Of a stretch of DNA of 64,000 bases, positions 55,563 to 64,000 are shown piece by piece (position 1 is the stretch's first letter; each line of letters begins with the position of its first letter). Source of the stretch: an uncultured Poribacteria bacterium (lineage in GTDB: Bacteria; Poribacteria; WGA-4E; WGA-3G); assembly GCA_951813565.1 (NCBI GenBank), contig OX638351.1:1792001-1856000 (forward strand). Reading direction: 5' to 3'. The position numbers and the translations under genes are program-made. A model generated the notes under the pieces. The model had not been told where the DNA came from, did no database searches, and saw only the letters and a program-made list of their open reading frames with translations.

Positions 55563-58451
55563 ATGAACACTCTGAAAAAACTCACAGCAAAAAACATATT
55601 CGCCGATATTAGAATCACGCGTCTTTTTCTCTGTTTTTGCCTAACGATGCTCATTTCATCAAACGTTTTTGCGCAAGGTTTTGGAAAAAACAAGATTACT
55701 GCACAACGTGATTGGCATATCCATCGCACAGAACATTTTGACATCTACTACTACCCCAGCGAAGCCAAACTTGTGCCGGTGATGGCTGCCATCGCAGAGG
55801 ACGCTTATGAAAAACATAGCGAAGACTTTGAACACGAACTTGAAAACAAAACGCCGCTAATCCTTTACAAATCACATAAAGATTTTCAAGAAACCAATAT
55901 CATACTTCAGGAACTACACGAAGGCATCGGAGGCTTTGCTGAACTCTTCAAACACCGTATTGTCATTCCCTTTACAGGTTCACTGGAAGCATTTCGCGAA
56001 GTTATTTTTCATGAGCTTATCCACATCTTTCAATACGATATTCTCTATCAAAAACCCCATGCAAGCATCTATAGTGGTGAGTTTCTCTACTCTCCACCTA
56101 TATGGTTCATGGAAGGAATGGCGGATTATTTTGCTGAAGATAACGATGCTATCGGCGAAATGGTATTGAGAGATGCAAGTATCAATAATAATATTGTGCC
56201 TTTGACAGAGTTACAGAACTTTAATCGACTGAGTTCACCTTATCTCGGATATAAGATGGGGCAGTTGGCTGTTGCGCATCTTGTACAGACTTATGGACGA
56301 GAAAAAATCGCTGAGATTCTGCAAGGCTTAAGACAGAGTCGAAGAAAAGATATAGATTCAGTTTTTAAAAACGTCTTGGGAGTAAGTCTTGCAGAATTTG
56401 ACAAAGAATGGCGACAAATGATGCGAAAACGTTATTGGCCATTGATTCAGGATATGGAACTACCGAACATCGCTGCCAAGATACTTACCGAAGAAGCAAG
56501 ATTCTCTCATAATATTAAACCTGTATGGTCACCCAGTGGTGATATTATTGCTTATATTACCGGTAATGAAGGATTTTTGGAAATTGTCCTGATGTCTGCC
56601 AAAACTGGGCAACGGCTTGATCGGATTACGAAACGCTTATTCCGTAATAAATACGAGGAAATCCGCACCGATTCCAGTGGATTTGATCAAAGCCTGGCAT
56701 GGGCACCCGATGGAGACCATATTGCCTTCATTGGCAAACATCACAATGCAAATTACCTATTTGAAGTCAATATCCTTACGCATAAATTGACACATTATAC
56801 CAAGCTTGATTTCGACGCTGCCACTTCACCTAATTACGACAGAAGTGGAAAGCAAATCGTTTTTTCCGCCTTAAAGGAAGGGCAAACAGACCTTTATATT
56901 ATTGATCTGGAAACCGAAACGATTGATAGATTAACCCAAGACCCCTTTAATGATACACATCCGTCTTGGCATCCAACAAAAAATGCAATTGTTTACGCTT
57001 CAGAACGAGAACGTAAAAATAGACTCGTGTTAATTGATATCGACCAACGGACCGAACAGACTCTCACAGGCAGCACCTCAAATGCAATCAGTCCCGTATG
57101 GATGTCCGATGGAAAAACTGTTTTATTTTCTGATGATCGTACCGGAGTCTTTGACGCATACAAACTCCACATCGCTGACATGCAAGTAACACGTCTTACT
57201 AACTTTATAACAGGCTGTTCCAACCCAAGTTTTTCACCTGATGAGAAGCGGCTGTTGTTTAGTGCTTATCAAGATGGGAAATATGATATCTGTGTAATGG
57301 AATCAGCAAACATACTCGACGAAAAAATTGAGACCCCCTCGTTAGAAACACAATCGGTTCCTATCGTTTTAGATTCTGATACCCCTGAACCAAATTATAG
57401 AATTGCGAAACGGAAGTACAGTACAAAATCTACTTTCCGTCTTGATGCCATTTTCCCGCAATTTAGTTATGGTGCAGATGGACTACTCCGTAGCCAAATT
57501 CAGATGAGTGCCAGCGATATGTTAGGTAATCATCGCGTGGAAGTTAATGTGATTAATCAATCAGGTGGATATCTTCTTCCGGATTTTATCGCGCAATACG
57601 GGTTTTTGACGCATCGTGCTGATATTGGTGCAGTAGTTTATAACTACCATCAATACCATCAGCGCGGGATTTTACAACGTGTTACGGGACTCGGCGGCTA
57701 TCTGAGCTATCCATTTGACCGGTATCGTCGGTTAGACCTTCAGTTTTCAATGTATACAACACCGTTCTCCTATAATTATCAGACAAGCGAGCCTTTTAAC
57801 TATTATGATCGCGGACTTCTCTCGCTCGGTTCCATCGCTTTTGTCGGTGATAACACAATGTGGAGAGAGTGGGCACCCTACAGAGGCGCGCGTTATCGCT
57901 TTGAAATAGAACGTTCATTTCCAGCTATTGGCAGCCAGTTAGCCCTTACAAACGCCATTTTCGATTTCCGAAATTATTTCGGTTTAGGGAGACGGTCCAC
58001 CATTGCCACCCGACTGCTGCTTGGTGGTAGTTTTGGCACTGACAGGTCTCTCTTTTATCTCGGCGGAATTGATACGCTCCGCGGTTATAATTACGAAGAC
58101 CTCGTCGGTTCTCGTATCGGACTGTTTAACGTTGAACTACGTATTCCGTTCATAGATGTTCTATATTTCGGGTGGCCAATTCGTTGGTCAATCGGCGGCA
58201 TCGGAGGTATCCTCTTTGCTGACTTCGGCGGCACATGGGCAAATTGGCAATACGGTCCCGATAACCCTTTCCAAGCACTCCGACGTGATGGCAATCGCAT
58301 CCGTCTTGTAGATATAAAAGGATCAGTAGGCATTGGACTTAGGCTAAAACTTGGCGTGTTCTCTTTAGATTTTGCTGCCGCACGCCACACTGATTTAGCA
58401 AGCATCAAACCGGGATTCAAATATCACTTTGGTTTAGGACAAGCATTTTAG
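55563..58451 (+). CDS. Outer-membrane protein: HExxH peptidase (MA) + TolB/PD40 propeller + Omp85/BamA-type barrel
   Basis: QGFGKNK, HELIH...WFMEGMADY, WSPSG/FSPDE repeats, LRGY, terminal F. Confidence 0.88.
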   Translation: MNTLKKLTAKNIFADIRITRLFLCFCLTMLISSNVFAQGFGKNKITAQRDWHIHRTEHFDIYYYPSEAKLVPVMAAIAEDAYEKHSEDFEHELENKTPLILYKSHKDFQETNIILQELHEGIGGFAELFKHRIVIPFTGSLEAFREVIFHELIHIFQYDILYQKPHASIYSGEFLYSPPIWFMEGMADYFAEDNDAIGEMVLRDASINNNIVPLTELQNFNRLSSPYLGYKMGQLAVAHLVQTYGREKIAEILQGLRQSRRKDIDSVFKNVLGVSLAEFDKEWRQMMRKRYWPLIQDMELPNIAAKILTEEARFSHNIKPVWSPSGDIIAYITGNEGFLEIVLMSAKTGQRLDRITKRLFRNKYEEIRTDSSGFDQSLAWAPDGDHIAFIGKHHNANYLFEVNILTHKLTHYTKLDFDAATSPNYDRSGKQIVFSALKEGQTDLYIIDLETETIDRLTQDPFNDTHPSWHPTKNAIVYASERERKNRLVLIDIDQRTEQTLTGSTSNAISPVWMSDGKTVLFSDDRTGVFDAYKLHIADMQVTRLTNFITGCSNPSFSPDEKRLLFSAYQDGKYDICVMESANILDEKIETPSLETQSVPIVLDSDTPEPNYRIAKRKYSTKSTFRLDAIFPQFSYGADGLLRSQIQMSASDMLGNHRVEVNVINQSGGYLLPDFIAQYGFLTHRADIGAVVYNYHQYHQRGILQRVTGLGGYLSYPFDRYRRLDLQFSMYTTPFSYNYQTSEPFNYYDRGLLSLGSIAFVGDNTMWREWAPYRGARYRFEIERSFPAIGSQLALTNAIFDFRNYFGLGRRSTIATRLLLGGSFGTDRSLFYLGGIDTLRGYNYEDLVGSRIGLFNVELRIPFIDVLYFGWPIRWSIGGIGGILFADFGGTWANWQYGPDNPFQALRRDGNRIRLVDIKGSVGIGLRLKLGVFSLDFAAARHTDLASIKPGFKYHFGLGQAF

Positions 58452-58496
58452 TTGGCTTATCGGCATGCGCTTGAATATAGATAGAATATAGGAGAT

Positions 58497-61400
58497 ATGT
58501 TCCAAAAAGACATAATCCAGACACAAGGAGAAAAAATGGATTCACGGATCAAACGTTATATCATCACTATTGCAATTTTAGCTATCCTTGCGGGTATTTT
58601 TACCGCCTGGGTCAATATTTATCCAGATTATTTATGGTTTGAGATGGTGGAAAAGATAAACATTTACACCAAAATTCTCACAACAAAAATCTTCGTGGGT
58701 GTAGTCGTTGGGGTTGTCTATCTTGCTATCCTCTTGGTAAATATCTTCATAATTCATCGGTTCACACCTGCACATCTCAGTCCCGCTTTCATGGGCGGCA
58801 CTGAATTCACCGGTGGACAAACCGATACTCGAAAAATGATTTACGGAGGACTTACGCTGCTCGCAATCCTTTTCAGCATTTTAATGGGATATTCAGCGAC
58901 CGATCGATGGGAAGTCTTTTTGCGATATACGCACGCTGAAAATCTAAATTTCCAGTCTGCTACACCTATAGTTGTTGAAAATAACCTCAATTCAGACGAA
59001 ATCACTGTCCCAACGTTAGAACTTGAGGCAAAGAACATACAGGTAGGCGATGAGGTAAACGTTTACATTGATGGGGATGAGCCAATTACCGCACAAGTTG
59101 AAGAGGTAATAACAAGAGGTATTGAACGGGCGGGTGCTCAAAATACAATACCGGTCGGTTTGCGTTTGAACACACCGGTTCAGATAGAGAGTGGACAAAA
59201 AGCGTATTTCACATCACTTGCTCGTGATCCGATTTTTGATAAGGATATTGCCTATTACGTCTTCAAAATGCCGATGGAGCGGTACGTCATCGGCACACTA
59301 TTTGGCATCTTTCTATTAGTTACAATTTTTGCTGTGATTATCTACTTTTTCCATGGATTGATAACAGGTGAAACAAACGAACTTCGCTTTCGCCCGCCTT
59401 TCCGAGTGAAAGCACATCTGTTCACTTTGGTAGGGTTAACACTTATATTCCGCGGTTGGAACTACCGCTATGTAATGTTTGACCTGCTGCATACCTCAAA
59501 CGATGTTGTGCGAGGCGGTGGTGGATACGCTGCAATGAATGCCCGTTACCCTGTTTTATGGATTATGTTGGTAATAACTGGTTTGTGTGCTGCTGTTTTC
59601 ATCATTAGCATCTTCCTGCGGCGCAACACTTTTGCTTTTGCTGGATTCATAATCTTCATAATCGCTGGTTTTGTTGGACAATTGTATCCAAAACTTATAC
59701 AGACATGGCGAGTTGAACCTAACAAACAGGTATTAGAACAGAAATATATTAACTATAATATCAAAGCAACGCTCCATGCTTATGGCTTAGAAAATAATAA
59801 GGTGACCGAAGAAGAGTATCCACTGACAGAGAAACTCTCCTATGCTGACATAACAAGTCCCGAAAATCAGCCTGTTATCAATAGTATCCGCCTCTGGGAT
59901 TGGCGTCCGATACGCAGAATCTTCCGGCAACTGCAAGAATTACGTTCACAGTACGATTTCTATGATGTAGACATTGACAGATACACTGTTAATGACACCA
60001 TTCAGCAAGTGATGCTTTCTGCACGCGAGTTAAACATCAATGAACTCCCGGATGCTGTCAAAAATGATTGGTACAAGCAGACCTATACCTATACGCACGG
60101 CTACGGAGCTGTCGTCAGTCCTGTGAACGAAATTGAGAACGGTAACCCTAATATGTACATCAGAGGATTACCACCTATTGAGTATGAATCCCAATGGCCG
60201 GATAGGTTTAACACAGAACCAGGGCCCCGAATTTACTACGGGGAGCGTACCGACAGGTACGTCATCGTTCATCCAGAACGCACTGAATTAAAACTTGAGT
60301 TCGACTATCCACAAGAGGGTCAACAGTACGTGGACTACGCCTATCAAGGTAATGGAGGTGTGGTGCTATCTTCTTTCTGGCGCAAACTTGTCTACATGCT
60401 CAAGTTTAATAATGAAATTAAGTTTGTCCTACCCGGTGAAATTACATCAGCAAGTAAAGTGCTTTACGAGCGAAATATCAAAAAGCGGATTCACAAGATC
60501 GCTCCCTTCTTGCGCTACGATGGGGACCCGTACGCCGTTATTCATGAGGGGAAACTTGTATGGATAATTGATGCGTATACGATCACGCACCGATACCCTT
60601 ATTCCGTTTCAATGCAAGAGTTTATTCAACGGAGAAGACAACCAGGAGGTGTGAGTCAAAGAGGCGGAGAACCTTGGGGAAACTATATTCGAAATTCTGT
60701 CAAGGTCGTAGTTGATGCTTACGATGGCACAGTTAATTTTTACCTCATTGAACAGGAACGCGATCCGATTGCTGAATGCTATCGCAAGATTTTCCCAGAC
60801 CTTTTCAAGAGTTTTGATGAGATGCCTGCTGACTTAAAAGCACACATACGTTACCCAACTACGATGTTCCTTATCCAGTCTCGTGTCTATCAAGATTATC
60901 ACATGAAAGACCCAATCACATTTTATGCTGGTGAAGACCAATGGGAAATCGGAACGGAATTGTACGACAATACAGACACGCAGATTAGACAAACCAGCAT
61001 GCCGCAGCAAACCAGTCCTCTTACCCCACAACGGATAGTTGAAAAGAGCTTACCCAGTAATGTCCAACCAGTTGAACCTTACTATGTCGTTCTCAGGCTA
61101 CCTGGGGAAGAGAATGCTGAATTTATGTTGATGTTGCCGTTCACACCACGGAATAAACCGAATCTTATCGCATGGCTCGCCGCTCGATGCGATTTACCGC
61201 AATATGGCCAACTCCTTGTCTATCGATTTCCGAAACAGGAATTAGTTTCCGGACCGATGCAGGTTGAAAACTTTATTAGCCAAAAACCTGAAATTTCACA
61301 GCAAATCAGCCTATGGAACACACAAGGCACACGGGTACTTCGCGGCAACCTACTAATTATGCCGATGAATAATTCACTTCTTTATGTGGAACCGATTTAT

Positions 61401-61757
61401 ATCCAATCTGAAGATGAGGCGACCGCAATTCCCGAACTCCGACGCGTCGTTGTTAGCTACGAAGAGAATGACAATCTCCATGTCGTTTGGGGCGAAACGC
61501 TTGATGAAGCACTCAGAGAAATGTTTGTAAGAAGAATAGGAGGGCAAACCGAACTCACGGCTACAGTTGATGGCACACTTGAAGCAACTGACCTCCCAGA
61601 AACCGCTACATCGTTGCGCGGGCTAATTGAGCAGGCAAATAACTATTATAATAGCGCACAACAAGCACAACGCAACGGTAACTGGACAGAATACGGACGC
61701 AATGTTGAACTCTTAGAGCAAACCTTGAAACAACTTGATGCAAACACGCAACAGTAA
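58497..61757 (+). CDS. UPF0182 family membrane protein
   Basis: DYLWF, DPIFDKDIAYYVF, IRLWD, DVDIDRY, YTHGYG, YIRNSVKVVVDAYDGTV, LLYVEPIY. Confidence 0.95.
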   Translation: MFQKDIIQTQGEKMDSRIKRYIITIAILAILAGIFTAWVNIYPDYLWFEMVEKINIYTKILTTKIFVGVVVGVVYLAILLVNIFIIHRFTPAHLSPAFMGGTEFTGGQTDTRKMIYGGLTLLAILFSILMGYSATDRWEVFLRYTHAENLNFQSATPIVVENNLNSDEITVPTLELEAKNIQVGDEVNVYIDGDEPITAQVEEVITRGIERAGAQNTIPVGLRLNTPVQIESGQKAYFTSLARDPIFDKDIAYYVFKMPMERYVIGTLFGIFLLVTIFAVIIYFFHGLITGETNELRFRPPFRVKAHLFTLVGLTLIFRGWNYRYVMFDLLHTSNDVVRGGGGYAAMNARYPVLWIMLVITGLCAAVFIISIFLRRNTFAFAGFIIFIIAGFVGQLYPKLIQTWRVEPNKQVLEQKYINYNIKATLHAYGLENNKVTEEEYPLTEKLSYADITSPENQPVINSIRLWDWRPIRRIFRQLQELRSQYDFYDVDIDRYTVNDTIQQVMLSARELNINELPDAVKNDWYKQTYTYTHGYGAVVSPVNEIENGNPNMYIRGLPPIEYESQWPDRFNTEPGPRIYYGERTDRYVIVHPERTELKLEFDYPQEGQQYVDYAYQGNGGVVLSSFWRKLVYMLKFNNEIKFVLPGEITSASKVLYERNIKKRIHKIAPFLRYDGDPYAVIHEGKLVWIIDAYTITHRYPYSVSMQEFIQRRRQPGGVSQRGGEPWGNYIRNSVKVVVDAYDGTVNFYLIEQERDPIAECYRKIFPDLFKSFDEMPADLKAHIRYPTTMFLIQSRVYQDYHMKDPITFYAGEDQWEIGTELYDNTDTQIRQTSMPQQTSPLTPQRIVEKSLPSNVQPVEPYYVVLRLPGEENAEFMLMLPFTPRNKPNLIAWLAARCDLPQYGQLLVYRFPKQELVSGPMQVENFISQKPEISQQISLWNTQGTRVLRGNLLIMPMNNSLLYVEPIYIQSEDEATAIPELRRVVVSYEENDNLHVVWGETLDEALREMFVRRIGGQTELTATVDGTLEATDLPETATSLRGLIEQANNYYNSAQQAQRNGNWTEYGRNVELLEQTLKQLDANTQQ

Positions 61758-61817
61758 TCAAGGAATTTCATAATACGGCATGTAAAACCCTACGATTATA
61801 GAGAGGAGGTGAAACAG

Positions 61818-62063
61818 ATGTCTCTTGATTGGAAACCACGTCACAGGGATATGGTAATTGGCGGCATACCTTGGCTCGCAAGAATTTCTGATAAAGCTAA
61901 CGCAAAACTGCAAGGCATCATCGGTGAATACATATATCCGTGACCACAAGATAAAATGTTCCTGGAGGAACATAAGATATCTGCTGAGGATTTTGTTGAA
62001 ATAGTAAAAAACAATCCCTCAGATGATGAAATGATTGCTGCTATAAAGAAGTTGAGCAGTTAA
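61818..62063 (+). CDS. DUF5069-like small selenoprotein (UGA at 61941-61943)
   Basis: AGGAGGTG RBS; MSLDWKPRHRDMVIGGIPWLARISDKANAKLQGIIGEYIYP-U-PQDKMFLEEHKISAEDFVEIVKNNPSDDEMIAAIKKLSS; hairpin 61956-61973. Confidence 0.82.
61956..61973 (+). promoter_or_regulatory. Candidate bacterial SECIS hairpin
   Basis: ATGTTCC-TGGA-GGAACAT, 12 nt after the UGA. Confidence 0.75.
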
Positions 62064-62069
62064 CACAAT

Positions 62070-62420
62070 TCCGTCAAATCCGCATGCTTTAGCTTGTGGA
62101 TGTAGACGGGTAACCTGTGCTTGGGCATCACAGACTGCCAGCGAAATTGAAATAGGGGTAATCCCCAATCGTCCTAACCTTTCAAAGTCGGTGGATAGCG
62201 TCCATATCAAGCCAATGCAGCAAGGACTTATCGCGCGGCGTGCCTGGTAGAAAGGGCAGCTGTCCAATGGGTGGAACCAGAGCCAACCCACGACGTTGCG
62301 AAAAACATATTAAACAGGCGGCTAAGCCGCCTAAAGTGGAGCAGACGTAAGACGTTTCTTCGGAAACGCTGACTGCAAGGAAGCACAAGTCCCAGCCTTC
62401 AGGCTGTGGGTCACTATGAC
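62070..62420 (+). mobile_element. ORF-less IS200/IS605-type element carrying an omega-RNA-like right end
   Basis: Left hairpin TCCGCATGCTTTAGCTTGTGGA; 62335-62420 homologous to the right end of the 51929-53311 element, both ending CTATGAC. Confidence 0.8.
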
Positions 62421-62510
62421 TATCCGGTGGGCTAAAGGCCTACCGGGTATACAATTACAAAGTTATGAAAGTGTGTTTTTACGCGCACAGGAATCCATAG
62501 ACATCGCGCA

Positions 62511-63590
62511 TTGGAGATAGTTTCCGTGGAACTAAAAAAATTACGCGATCAAATTAATAGCATAGACGACCAACTTCTAAATCTTCTTCAAGAACGCGCA
62601 GAGATTTCCAAGAAGATAGGTTCCTTAAAAGCCGACACGGGGAAGGAAATTTATGTACCGCAGCGTGAGTACGAAATTCGTAATCGTCTAAAAACGCAGA
62701 ATCTCGGTATATATCCCAAAGATGCGCTTGACAAAATTTGGACTGAAATTTTTGCTGCTTCACGAGCCGTGCAAACCCCAAATAGGGTTGCTTTCCTCGG
62801 CCCATCAGGTAGTTTTGGACACACGGCAAGCCTATCGTTTTTCGGGCCTTTTGCTGAAATGATTCCGATCACTCCACAGATTGATATCTTTACTGAAGTT
62901 GAAACCGGACGCGCTGATTTTGGCGTGGTAGCAATTGAGAATTCAGTTTACGGCACTGTCCGGGACGTTTTAGAACGTTTTCAACACACATCTATGAAAA
63001 TCTGTGCAGAAATTTACCAACCTATCAGACACCATCTCATCTCAAAATTTCCGCTTCCTGAGGTTCAGCGTGTCTATTCCCACAGCCAACCCTTTGCCCA
63101 ATGTAGAATGTGGCTGAATAAATATATGAAATCAGTGGAACAGGTTGAAGTTGTCAGTACGTCTGATGCTGCACAACGCGCAGCAGATGAACCAAACGCT
63201 GCAGCAATCGCAAGTAAGCTGGCAAGTGAAATCTACGAGGTCCCTGTGATAGCGGATTCTATCATGGACGAACCGAATAACACGACTCGTTTTTTTATTA
63301 TTGGCGACCAAATAGTTGGCAAAAGTGGCAATGATTGCACATCTATCTTTTTTGCAATTAAAGACAAAGTCGGGGCATTGTATGAAATCTTGGGTGTCTT
63401 AGTAAAATATCAATTAAGCCTTAGTTATTTACAATCGCTTCCTTCGCGCACCGAACCGTGGGAATATATCTTTTTTGCTGATATTGATGGACATATTGAT
63501 GATGACAACGTTCATTCTGTCGTTGAACAGCTTGAGGATTTATGTCAGGATGTCAAAATCCTCGGTTCTTACCCACGCGGTGCAAAATAG
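62511..63590 (+). CDS. pheA: Chorismate mutase/prephenate dehydratase
   Basis: LRDQINSIDDQLL, VAFLGPSGSF, AIENS, YSHSQPFAQC, NTTRF, C-terminal ACT domain LGSYP. Confidence 0.95.
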   Translation: MEIVSVELKKLRDQINSIDDQLLNLLQERAEISKKIGSLKADTGKEIYVPQREYEIRNRLKTQNLGIYPKDALDKIWTEIFAASRAVQTPNRVAFLGPSGSFGHTASLSFFGPFAEMIPITPQIDIFTEVETGRADFGVVAIENSVYGTVRDVLERFQHTSMKICAEIYQPIRHHLISKFPLPEVQRVYSHSQPFAQCRMWLNKYMKSVEQVEVVSTSDAAQRAADEPNAAAIASKLASEIYEVPVIADSIMDEPNNTTRFFIIGDQIVGKSGNDCTSIFFAIKDKVGALYEILGVLVKYQLSLSYLQSLPSRTEPWEYIFFADIDGHIDDDNVHSVVEQLEDLCQDVKILGSYPRGAK

Positions 63591-63666
63591 CATTTTGTTC
63601 TTTACCTTAAAATGCTATTACGCTTTCTCTATTGAACAATTCCTTTTTAATTCCGAATAGAGAGCA

Positions 63667-64000
63667 ATGGCAAACACATTAACCCAACAAATCCAGACTC
63701 GCGCACACGAACTCGGCTTTGAACTTGTTGGGATTACCCCTGCCGAACAGAGTCAAACTATTCAACGTTACCGGCAATGGATTGAAAGCGGATATGCCGG
63801 GAAAATGGGTTACCTTGAAAGACACCTGCCACTCAAGGAAGATACCCGAAGACTTCTTGAAGAGACAAAATCCATTATTAGTCTGGCGATGAACTATTAT
63901 ACGCTGGATACACCTAAAGCATTAGCAGAAGATCCGAGTCGTGGACAAATATCTCGGTATGCATGGGGTGATGACTATCATGATGTCATTCGTGAACGCC
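63667..64000 (+). CDS. queG: Epoxyqueuosine reductase (partial)
   Basis: MANTLTQQIQTRAHELGFELVGIT...GYAGKMGYL...SRYAWGDDYHDVIRER. Confidence 0.9.
   Translation, partial: MANTLTQQIQTRAHELGFELVGITPAEQSQTIQRYRQWIESGYAGKMGYLERHLPLKEDTRRLLEETKSIISLAMNYYTLDTPKALAEDPSRGQISRYAWGDDYHDVIRER

Follow-up and report, generated by a model that had tools for sequence, protein, structure and literature searches.

Bacterial selenoprotein genes carry within their coding sequence a SECIS hairpin that is read by SelB, the type case being the formate dehydrogenase genes of E. coli. Such genes combine an in-frame UGA with a hairpin loop 16-37 nt downstream and a G in the first two loop positions, and they go together with selA, selB, selC and selD and with cysteine (Cys) homologues elsewhere. 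The gene described here, from an uncultured Poribacteria bacterium, is alike in all these respects, and its decoding mechanism is an ordinary one of a known kind. Unlike the catalogued bacterial selenoprotein genes, however, it belongs to an unlisted family and has no CxxU, UxxC or CU motif. In the catalogue, the families DUF1858, DUF166, DUF1573, DUF523, DUF3179, KCU-star/DUF466 and UXX-star, made up of proteins without an assigned function, were likewise recognised as selenoproteins via Cys/UGA pairs and truncated database entries; they have no Pfam or NCBIfam match in common with our protein and, in contrast to these small DUF-type families, the present gene is near-universal and single-copy in one class and lies outside any selenoprotein cluster.

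The family in question, DUF5069 (Pfam PF16798), does not appear among the 119 families in Table 1 of the 2026 catalogue (PMC13188914), a table that also cites the families of Haft and Tolstoy 2025. Neither the available text of BSepDB (PMC13326102), which compiles 111 families from earlier reports, nor that of deep-Sep (PMC12013277) with its four supplements mentions DUF5069. A search for DUF5069 or PF16798 and their variants, covering a literature to which most subscription papers and bioRxiv supplements do not belong, returned no paper; among papers on selenoproteins of Poribacteria or Latescibacteria, none is on DUF5069 by its title or the start of its abstract, and a search on 3OMD, the solved structure of the family, gave unrelated papers only. 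An earlier note on this DNA had doubted that this is a well-known selenoprotein family; the doubt holds within the searchable literature, the catalogue table and NCBIfam, and we are very probably dealing with a selenoprotein family absent from current catalogues and from NCBIfam.

A single gene split at an in-frame TGA

The window, that is, the whole stretch of DNA analysed, comprises 64,000 nt of contig OX638351.1 (GCA_951813565.1). The earlier note had described a strong ribosome-binding site, 41 codons, an in-frame TGA, 39 more codons and a TAA, with a perfect 7-bp hairpin 12 nt behind the TGA, and our analysis finds every one of these features in its place, the start being the ATG at 61818 (see the table). 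It had also pointed out that the gene is missing from the ORF listing, and this is readily explained: the halves appear as two frames, one of 44 aa (starting at the GTG at 61809) and one of 35 aa, and both were thus missed by the 60-aa cut-off. The core GGAGGTG precedes the start in 81/81 close loci and the product measures 81 aa in 80 of them and 84 aa in the remaining one. The locus is a single gene that annotation has cut in two at the UGA.

Table. Features of the DUF5069 locus and of the surrounding genome. Positions are those of the window unless marked G000:C1.
Feature	Position	Strand	Basis or remark
Shine-Dalgarno AGGAGGTG	61804..61811	+	sequence; 6 nt upstream of ATG
Gene, 81-residue short DUF5069 protein with TGA read through	61818..62063	+	translation, Pfam, fold
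In-frame TGA, codon 42, inferred selenocysteine, motif YIYP-U-PQD	61941..61943	+	conservation, Cys column
SECIS-type hairpin ATGTTCC-TGGA-GGAACAT, 7-bp stem	61956..61973	+	fold, codon freeze, covariation
True stop TAA	62061..62063	+	sequence; stop after residue 81 in 80/81 close loci
Conserved gene order on the two sides of the gene	55563..61757; 62511..64000	+	QueG by eye
Repeat of ~350 bp between gene and pheA	62071..62421		blastn
TnpB-like frame, 373 aa	52007..53128	-	by eye
selD	G000:C1 4610940-4611866	-	in-frame TGA
Further candidate TGAs	G000:C1 4467097, 4948687, 5150303, 5151710, 3262206, 4297404	+	
Further candidate TGAs	G000:C1 4462776, 3554159, 660557, 3198568, 2064961, 1111075	-	
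Paralogous frame L192	G000:C1:2853089-2854669	+	in-frame TGA, ESC-U-G
Paralogous frame L193	G000:C1:2855966-2858002	+	in-frame TGA, EAC-U-G
Paralogous frame L194	G000:C1:1717410-1718975	-	in-frame TGA, ESC-U-A
L195	G000:C1:3348581-3349411	+	F5/8 type C domain (E 5.6e-06), TGA in KWC-U-G
Three-domain DUF5069 paralogue, 427 aa	G000:C1:2772080-2773345	-	
Single DUF5069 domain in 155-aa frame	G000:C1:1590913-1591269	+	
Second, permuted tmRNA	G000:C1:593527-594166	-	ARAGORN; may be a false call
Ordinary tmRNA	G000:C1 2195363-2195712		

The TGA is not a sequencing error, as contigs from three further runs agree at this codon: those from runs X2 and X4, which may themselves be the source DNA, span 61500-62700 with 0 differences, and the X6 contig has 5 differences, none of them listed at the TGA. 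Four contigs from the RNA run X1, one with 1 difference in 151 nt, lie over the gene and none over the flanking genes; the run was located via this very stretch and consists of assembled contigs only, and it is therefore no measure of expression. On the gene's strand, the scan for promoters and terminators gave no signal exceeding that of shuffled sequences, Rfam returned two chance-level matches only over 61500-62700, and the plasmid search had no match.

Conservation of the UGA and its cysteine counterpart

The earlier note, going by the family motif, had placed the UGA exactly on the conserved Cys of DUF5069, and the alignments bear this out. Of the 166 database homologues in the best alignment, 116 have Cys in column 42, 15 have Ser, 13 have Trp and 4 have some other residue; a further 14 entries break off exactly after residue 41, the Pro that precedes the UGA, and the last 4 leave the site uncovered. 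At the level of DNA, the close loci carry TGA without exception (81/81), and the pairs of Cys and UGA forms that the note had suggested looking for are found in genomes and metagenomes alike, TGA standing alongside TGC and TGT. Among 148 genomes of the class that are >=90% complete, 146 have the gene, with TGA in 142 and Cys in 4; counted over matches, 143/147 have one TGA and the remaining 4 all belong to a single family (f8). When 20 orthologues were fetched across families, 12 had TGA and 8 had TGC or TGT, the latter all from the same family f8 (8/8). The best 80 of the 148 genome loci are named Candidatus Poribacteria or uncultured bacterium. The best 80 of 207 metagenome loci, at 44-97% protein identity, comprise 67 with TGA, 10 with TGC and 3 with TGT; one of them (L155) comes from approximately the window's own species.

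The distribution of the TGA form is wider than the earlier note had foreseen. For the Sec loci L107, L129, L130, L162 and L183, the taxa given for neighbouring proteins, or for proteins sharing a 90% cluster with them, are Latescibacterota or Handelsmanbacteria (for L107, also Gemmatimonadota), and by these names the predicted Sec form spans at least two phyla, Poribacteria and that of the Latescibacterota-type contigs. A Chloroflexota entry (P0136) ends at the same Pro, and Chloroflexota may be a third phylum with the Sec form. The Latescibacterota-type Sec forms (L107-L186) differ in their Cys content: in 29/67 a Cys lies exactly 24 residues beyond the Sec, and 36/67 contain no Cys at all.

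Were the UGA a true stop, the locus would be a pseudogene or would encode two tiny peptides, one of 41 aa and one of 35 aa starting from the ATG at 61956. The 14 database entries that end at the Pro before the UGA could be taken in that sense, as could the second halves deposited as separate short proteins (P0020, P0153), but the stop is always TGA and never TAA or TAG across 44-97% protein identity, both the frame and its end are kept behind the TGA, the Met at codon 47 occurs in 66/81 loci and so is not conserved, and the fold requires both halves. The second half also evolves as coding sequence, with a third-position entropy of 0.87 against 0.27 and 0.14. We reject termination at this codon and give it next to no chance of being right.

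The SECIS-type hairpin

The consensus bSECIS model (PMC13188914) has a loop of 3-9 nt, a stem of 4-16 bp, a spacing of 16-37 nt, a G in the first two loop positions and an MFE of at most -7.5. The hairpin behind the TGA has a loop of 4 nt (UGGA) that begins 19 nt past the TGA, a stem of 7 bp, a G at loop position 2 and an energy of -7.9 to -11.5 kcal/mol, and it lies within all four constraints of the model, much as the earlier note had expected in likening it to bacterial SECIS elements. It begins 12 nt past the TGA and overlaps codons 47-52 (MFLEEH). Taken alone, the hairpin is of modest stability against shuffled controls or chance (z -1.4 to -2.3), and a comparable perfect 7-bp stem is found at 1473/210073 of the genomic TGA triplets (0.7%); it rises above chance because it is conserved jointly with the TGA. 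An extended lower stem (AGAUA/UAUCU) was also predicted for the window; it is not conserved in the close loci, and we discounted it.

Several lines of evidence concern the letters of the stem rather than its mere presence. Codons 48-51 read TTC CTG GAG GAA in 79/81 loci and the two exceptions retain a G-U pair; the synonymous entropy of these codons is 0.05 bits against 1.02 at the 68 other codons. This spelling is predicted for 0.8% of cases from codon usage and is used by 0/19 of the FLEE peptides in the genome's long genes. The peptide varies while the stem stays (FLEE in 110, FLEG in 8 and FLDG in 3 of 123). Among 159 TGA loci, representing 122 distinct 42-mers, the loop is UGGA in 120/122 and at least 5 contiguous pairs form in 117/122, whereas none of the 19 distinct variants from 21 Cys loci reaches 5 contiguous pairs (0/19), a loss that the earlier note had not foreseen. 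Five of the 122 TGA variants are stemless in this register; three of these resemble a hairpin with a shifted 5-nt loop, and L128 and L132 have no matching hairpin. In a set of 62 related rows, hand-picked for diversity and with the structure taken from the window, the covariation score reached 0.32, whereas shuffles scored 0.14 and slid partners no more than 0.11; 88% of cells pair and 50 change both sides, and one stem pair switches between G-C (43 rows) and C-G (17 rows). From the synonymous freeze, the covariation and the loss in Cys forms, we infer that the hairpin is under selection as RNA. Two Cys forms, L089 (G009) and L122, have kept the first half of the hairpin, TTCCTGGA, and lost the 3' strand; these are possibly SECIS elements decaying after a return to Cys.

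Selenocysteine machinery and further candidates in the genome

The genome (G000) encodes selA, selB and selD, the last with an in-frame TGA of its own, and tRNA-Sec(UCA) directly behind selB, and so the complete set of selA, selB, selC and selD that the earlier note had proposed to look for is in place. Within the phylum, selA occurs in 163/176 genomes. It is found in 140/142 of the TGA-bearing genomes that are >=90% complete, the other two being fragmented and both having selB, and two near-complete genomes that lack the gene (family f5) also lack selA and selB. In family f8, 7/8 genomes retain selA yet use Cys, which argues that Sec is not essential to the protein's function.

The same data bear on the possibility that another genetic code or a suppressor tRNA makes this UGA a codon for Trp or Cys. 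The Trp at column 42 of 13 database proteins might suggest as much, but one of these entries (P0021) matches a contig (L107) that reads TGA, and the Trp is therefore an artefact of the gene caller. Besides, TGA terminates 440/2265 long frames in the genome, the sole UCA tRNA found is tRNA-Sec, TGG was seen at no locus, the alternatives to TGA being TGC and TGT only, and a SECIS hairpin would be superfluous. We consider such a reading extremely improbable and reject it. Of the three observations that the earlier note had named as speaking against a selenoprotein, namely a genome without Sec machinery, homologues with a residue other than Cys at the column (116/166 have Cys there) and a UGA not conserved in relatives (it is kept in 81/81 close loci and 142/146 gene-bearing genomes of the class), none applies, and the gene is very likely a selenoprotein, with Sec inserted at codon 42, as judged from comparative sequence evidence.

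The organism is rich in selenoproteins. Besides the present gene, the genome scan produced at least 16 further candidates with a UGA and a hairpin, and 11/15 of the scanned candidates match thioredoxin-fold, metal-binding or known selenoprotein models; the types include peroxiredoxin- and thioredoxin-like proteins, an ArsC-like protein, a heavy-metal-associated domain, a PrdB-like protein, the UGSC family and SelD, while a formate dehydrogenase candidate was called by motif only. Three paralogous frames of 520-680 aa (L192, L193 and L194 in the table), each with an in-frame TGA and a SECIS-like hairpin, have no Pfam or NCBIfam match, and their database relatives are Poribacteria hypothetical proteins, some of which end at the Cys before the TGA. 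The surroundings of their motif may have a wider likeness to selenoprotein N. The eukaryotic selenoprotein N carries the motif SCUG (PMC12839072), and no SelN-like family is present in the 2026 prokaryotic catalogue (PMC13188914). A further frame, L195, carries the hairpin TTCC-GGA-GGAA 20 nt past its TGA, near-identical to the SECIS of the DUF5069 gene, and has no NCBIfam match; its product is probably secreted, and it is possibly another uncatalogued selenoprotein. In passing, ARAGORN reported, in addition to the ordinary tmRNA, a permuted one that overlaps a tRNA-Ala.

Evolution of the Sec and Cys forms

For the phylogenetic analysis, 51 rows of 76 columns each were chosen from a set of 99 rows and the Sec/Cys column was masked. 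All the Sec rows (28/28) fell in one branch of 39 with support of 100/98, together with 11 Cys rows; a clade of Sec rows only was rejected (p-AU 7e-5), and 4-6 changes are needed. The hairpin, constant in its place and its spelling, would point to a single gain of Sec followed by repeated returns to Cys, the root of the tree not being established.

Family, fold and protein features

A Pfam search supports the family call of the earlier note: PF16798 matches residues 7-78 with an E value of 1.9e-14 and 54.4 bits, against a gathering cut-off of 27. The match covers positions 4-75 of the 133 profile positions only, an N-terminal part short of a whole domain, which the earlier note had not foreseen; the conserved stop after residue 81 indicates that this is a short subfamily and not a truncation. 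NCBIfam (20.0 models) gave no match up to E 1. The only solved member of the family, the uncharacterised protein 3OMD of Leptospirillum rubarum, is related with an E value of 1.3e-11 and shares with our protein the motifs R-x-x-D-K and Y-x-Y-x-C-P-x-D; its Cys stands in the same column, where the window protein would have Sec by virtue of the UGA and the SECIS. In contrast to its 145 aa with C-terminal helices, the window protein has 81 aa and is without those helices. The AlphaFold2 model (mean pLDDT 91) consists of four helices, 20-32, 43-51, 56-65 and 69-80, and resembles 3OMD with a TM of 0.85 and rmsd of 1.0 in Foldseek and a Z of 13.1 and rmsd of 1.2 over 79 residues in VIA. Beyond 3OMD, neither program found a fold match (the next hits had an E of 3.6 in Foldseek and a Z of 3.7 in VIA); no redox enzyme was matched by either, and no thioredoxin-fold chain stands among the matches listed. 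As nothing but 3OMD was matched, the fold gives no function.

Position 42 is the sole Cys/Sec site and the only S/Se residue of the protein, which lacks CxxU and UxxC motifs, and Arg22, Asp25, Lys26, Asp45 and Asp69 are conserved at >=90%. Longer forms of DUF5069 exist in 22 proteins, mostly as three-domain repeats, and among 41 scanned homologues we found fusions to cupin (3), DUF2249 (1) and methyltransferase (1) domains, some of which may be chimeric. The genome itself has two other DUF5069 frames, a three-domain paralogue of a form common in Poribacteria and a single domain within a longer frame; both keep R-x-x-D-K and have a G-x-x-S-G/E-x-D loop without Cys.

Probable decoding and possible function

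We regard it as very likely that the UGA is read as Sec with the hairpin's help, and we predict the product to be a small single-selenol redox protein; the redox function is our best guess, at about even chances. In such a scheme, the hairpin with its UGGA loop 19 nt past the UGA would be the binding site of SelB, which brings in Sec-tRNA(UCA); if selenium were lacking, translation would end at codon 42 and yield a fragment of 41 residues. Sec42 would immediately precede the predicted helix 43-51, where an anionic nucleophile is favoured, with the nearly invariant Arg22, Asp25, Lys26 and Asp45 shaping the putative site; the selenolate could then attack a peroxide, disulfide or persulfide substrate. 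Recycling of Sec42 would fall to an outside reductant, for example the thioredoxin-fold selenoproteins of the genome, and in the 29/67 metagenome Sec forms that have a Cys 24 residues downstream, this residue might resolve the selenol. According to the catalogue, most uncharacterised selenoproteins likely serve redox functions (PMC13188914). Counting against a redox role are the lack of CxxU and UxxC motifs and of a second Cys, the lack of a fold match to redox enzymes and the lack of a redox neighbour. The R-D-K surface may also have a job independent of Cys, since Ser occupies the column in 15/166 homologues and the three-domain paralogue keeps R-D-K without Cys.

The single Sec could also serve as a ligand of a metal or cofactor, be it a soft metal, an Fe-S cluster or heme, possibly shared by two subunits, and make the protein a small chaperone or sensor rather than a redox catalyst. 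A lone ligand residue on a tiny helical domain would suit such a role, as would the fusions of DUF5069 to cupin, DUF2249 and methyltransferase domains, few as they are and in part possibly chimeric, and Cys-Pro is a heme-binding motif. Metal-binding selenoproteins are also included in the catalogue (PMC13188914). The protein has, however, no second conserved Cys or His, the Pro after the Sec is Gly, Ala or Ser in 36/123 of the TGA variants, the title of 3OMD names no ligand and the neighbours do not handle metals, and we consider a ligand role unlikely, although it is the chief alternative to the redox role.

To return to the selenol reading, a more far-reaching version of it, which we put forward tentatively and hold to be rather doubtful, is that the short DUF5069 clade is a class of selenoenzymes whose fold no other enzyme shares, performing a core housekeeping reaction in Poribacteria and Latescibacterota with one selenol and the R-D-K surface; Sec would have been gained once and one SECIS sequence kept across two phyla, with several reversions to Cys as the hairpin decayed. 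If true, this would assign a function to DUF5069 as a whole and offer a clean natural experiment on why lineages that still have the machinery keep Sec or drop it. Whatever the function, the gene adds to the bacterial selenoproteome a family missing from the 2026 catalogue and NCBIfam, and shows that public databases split, or misread as Trp, a gene that almost all genomes of a major class of sponge symbionts carry. Since Sec nearly always marks a working residue, the gene points to Cys/Sec42 as the active site of DUF5069, and for a family that has a solved structure and no function this idea can now be put to a direct test. Matched orthologues, the Sec forms having the hairpin and the Cys forms having lost it, are a ready set for studying the rules of SECIS elements and the switches between Sec and Cys.

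Genomic neighbourhood

In 100 Poribacteria loci, the gene is followed on the same strand by pheA in at least 86, a lower bound as the picking of ORFs hid some pheA genes under antisense frames, and preceded by a UPF0182 membrane protein in 87. The association with the aromatic amino acid gene raises the thought of a selenium-dependent control element in which read-through or stopping at the UGA tunes pheA, but Cys forms likewise precede pheA, a gap of ~450 nt with an inserted mobile element separates the two genes in the window, and the protein itself is a conserved, folded domain whose relative 3OMD has a solved structure. The Latescibacterota-type Sec forms, moreover, have unrelated and varied neighbours: pheA is near the gene in 17/80 metagenome loci, and the 13 loci scanned have, for example, RsmD, HDOD, ABC transporters, SucC and glycosyltransferases. 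We find such control very improbable and reject it. The neighbourhoods examined contain no selenium or redox operon or cluster and no operon common across phyla, and the DUF5069 gene has the character of a single-copy housekeeping gene rather than that of a member of such an operon.

The conserved order in the window is a fusion of Omp85, PD40 and peptidase MA, UPF0182, the DUF5069 gene, pheA and a QueG-like frame. The repeat between the gene and pheA is absent at this place from 80 related loci and has 60 other blastn matches in the genome; 30/45 of the right-end matches lie within 400 nt of tnpB-like sequence, and the repeat is likely a non-autonomous derivative of IS200/IS605. Further upstream in the window, on the opposite strand, the TnpB-like frame has 51 tblastn matches in the genome.
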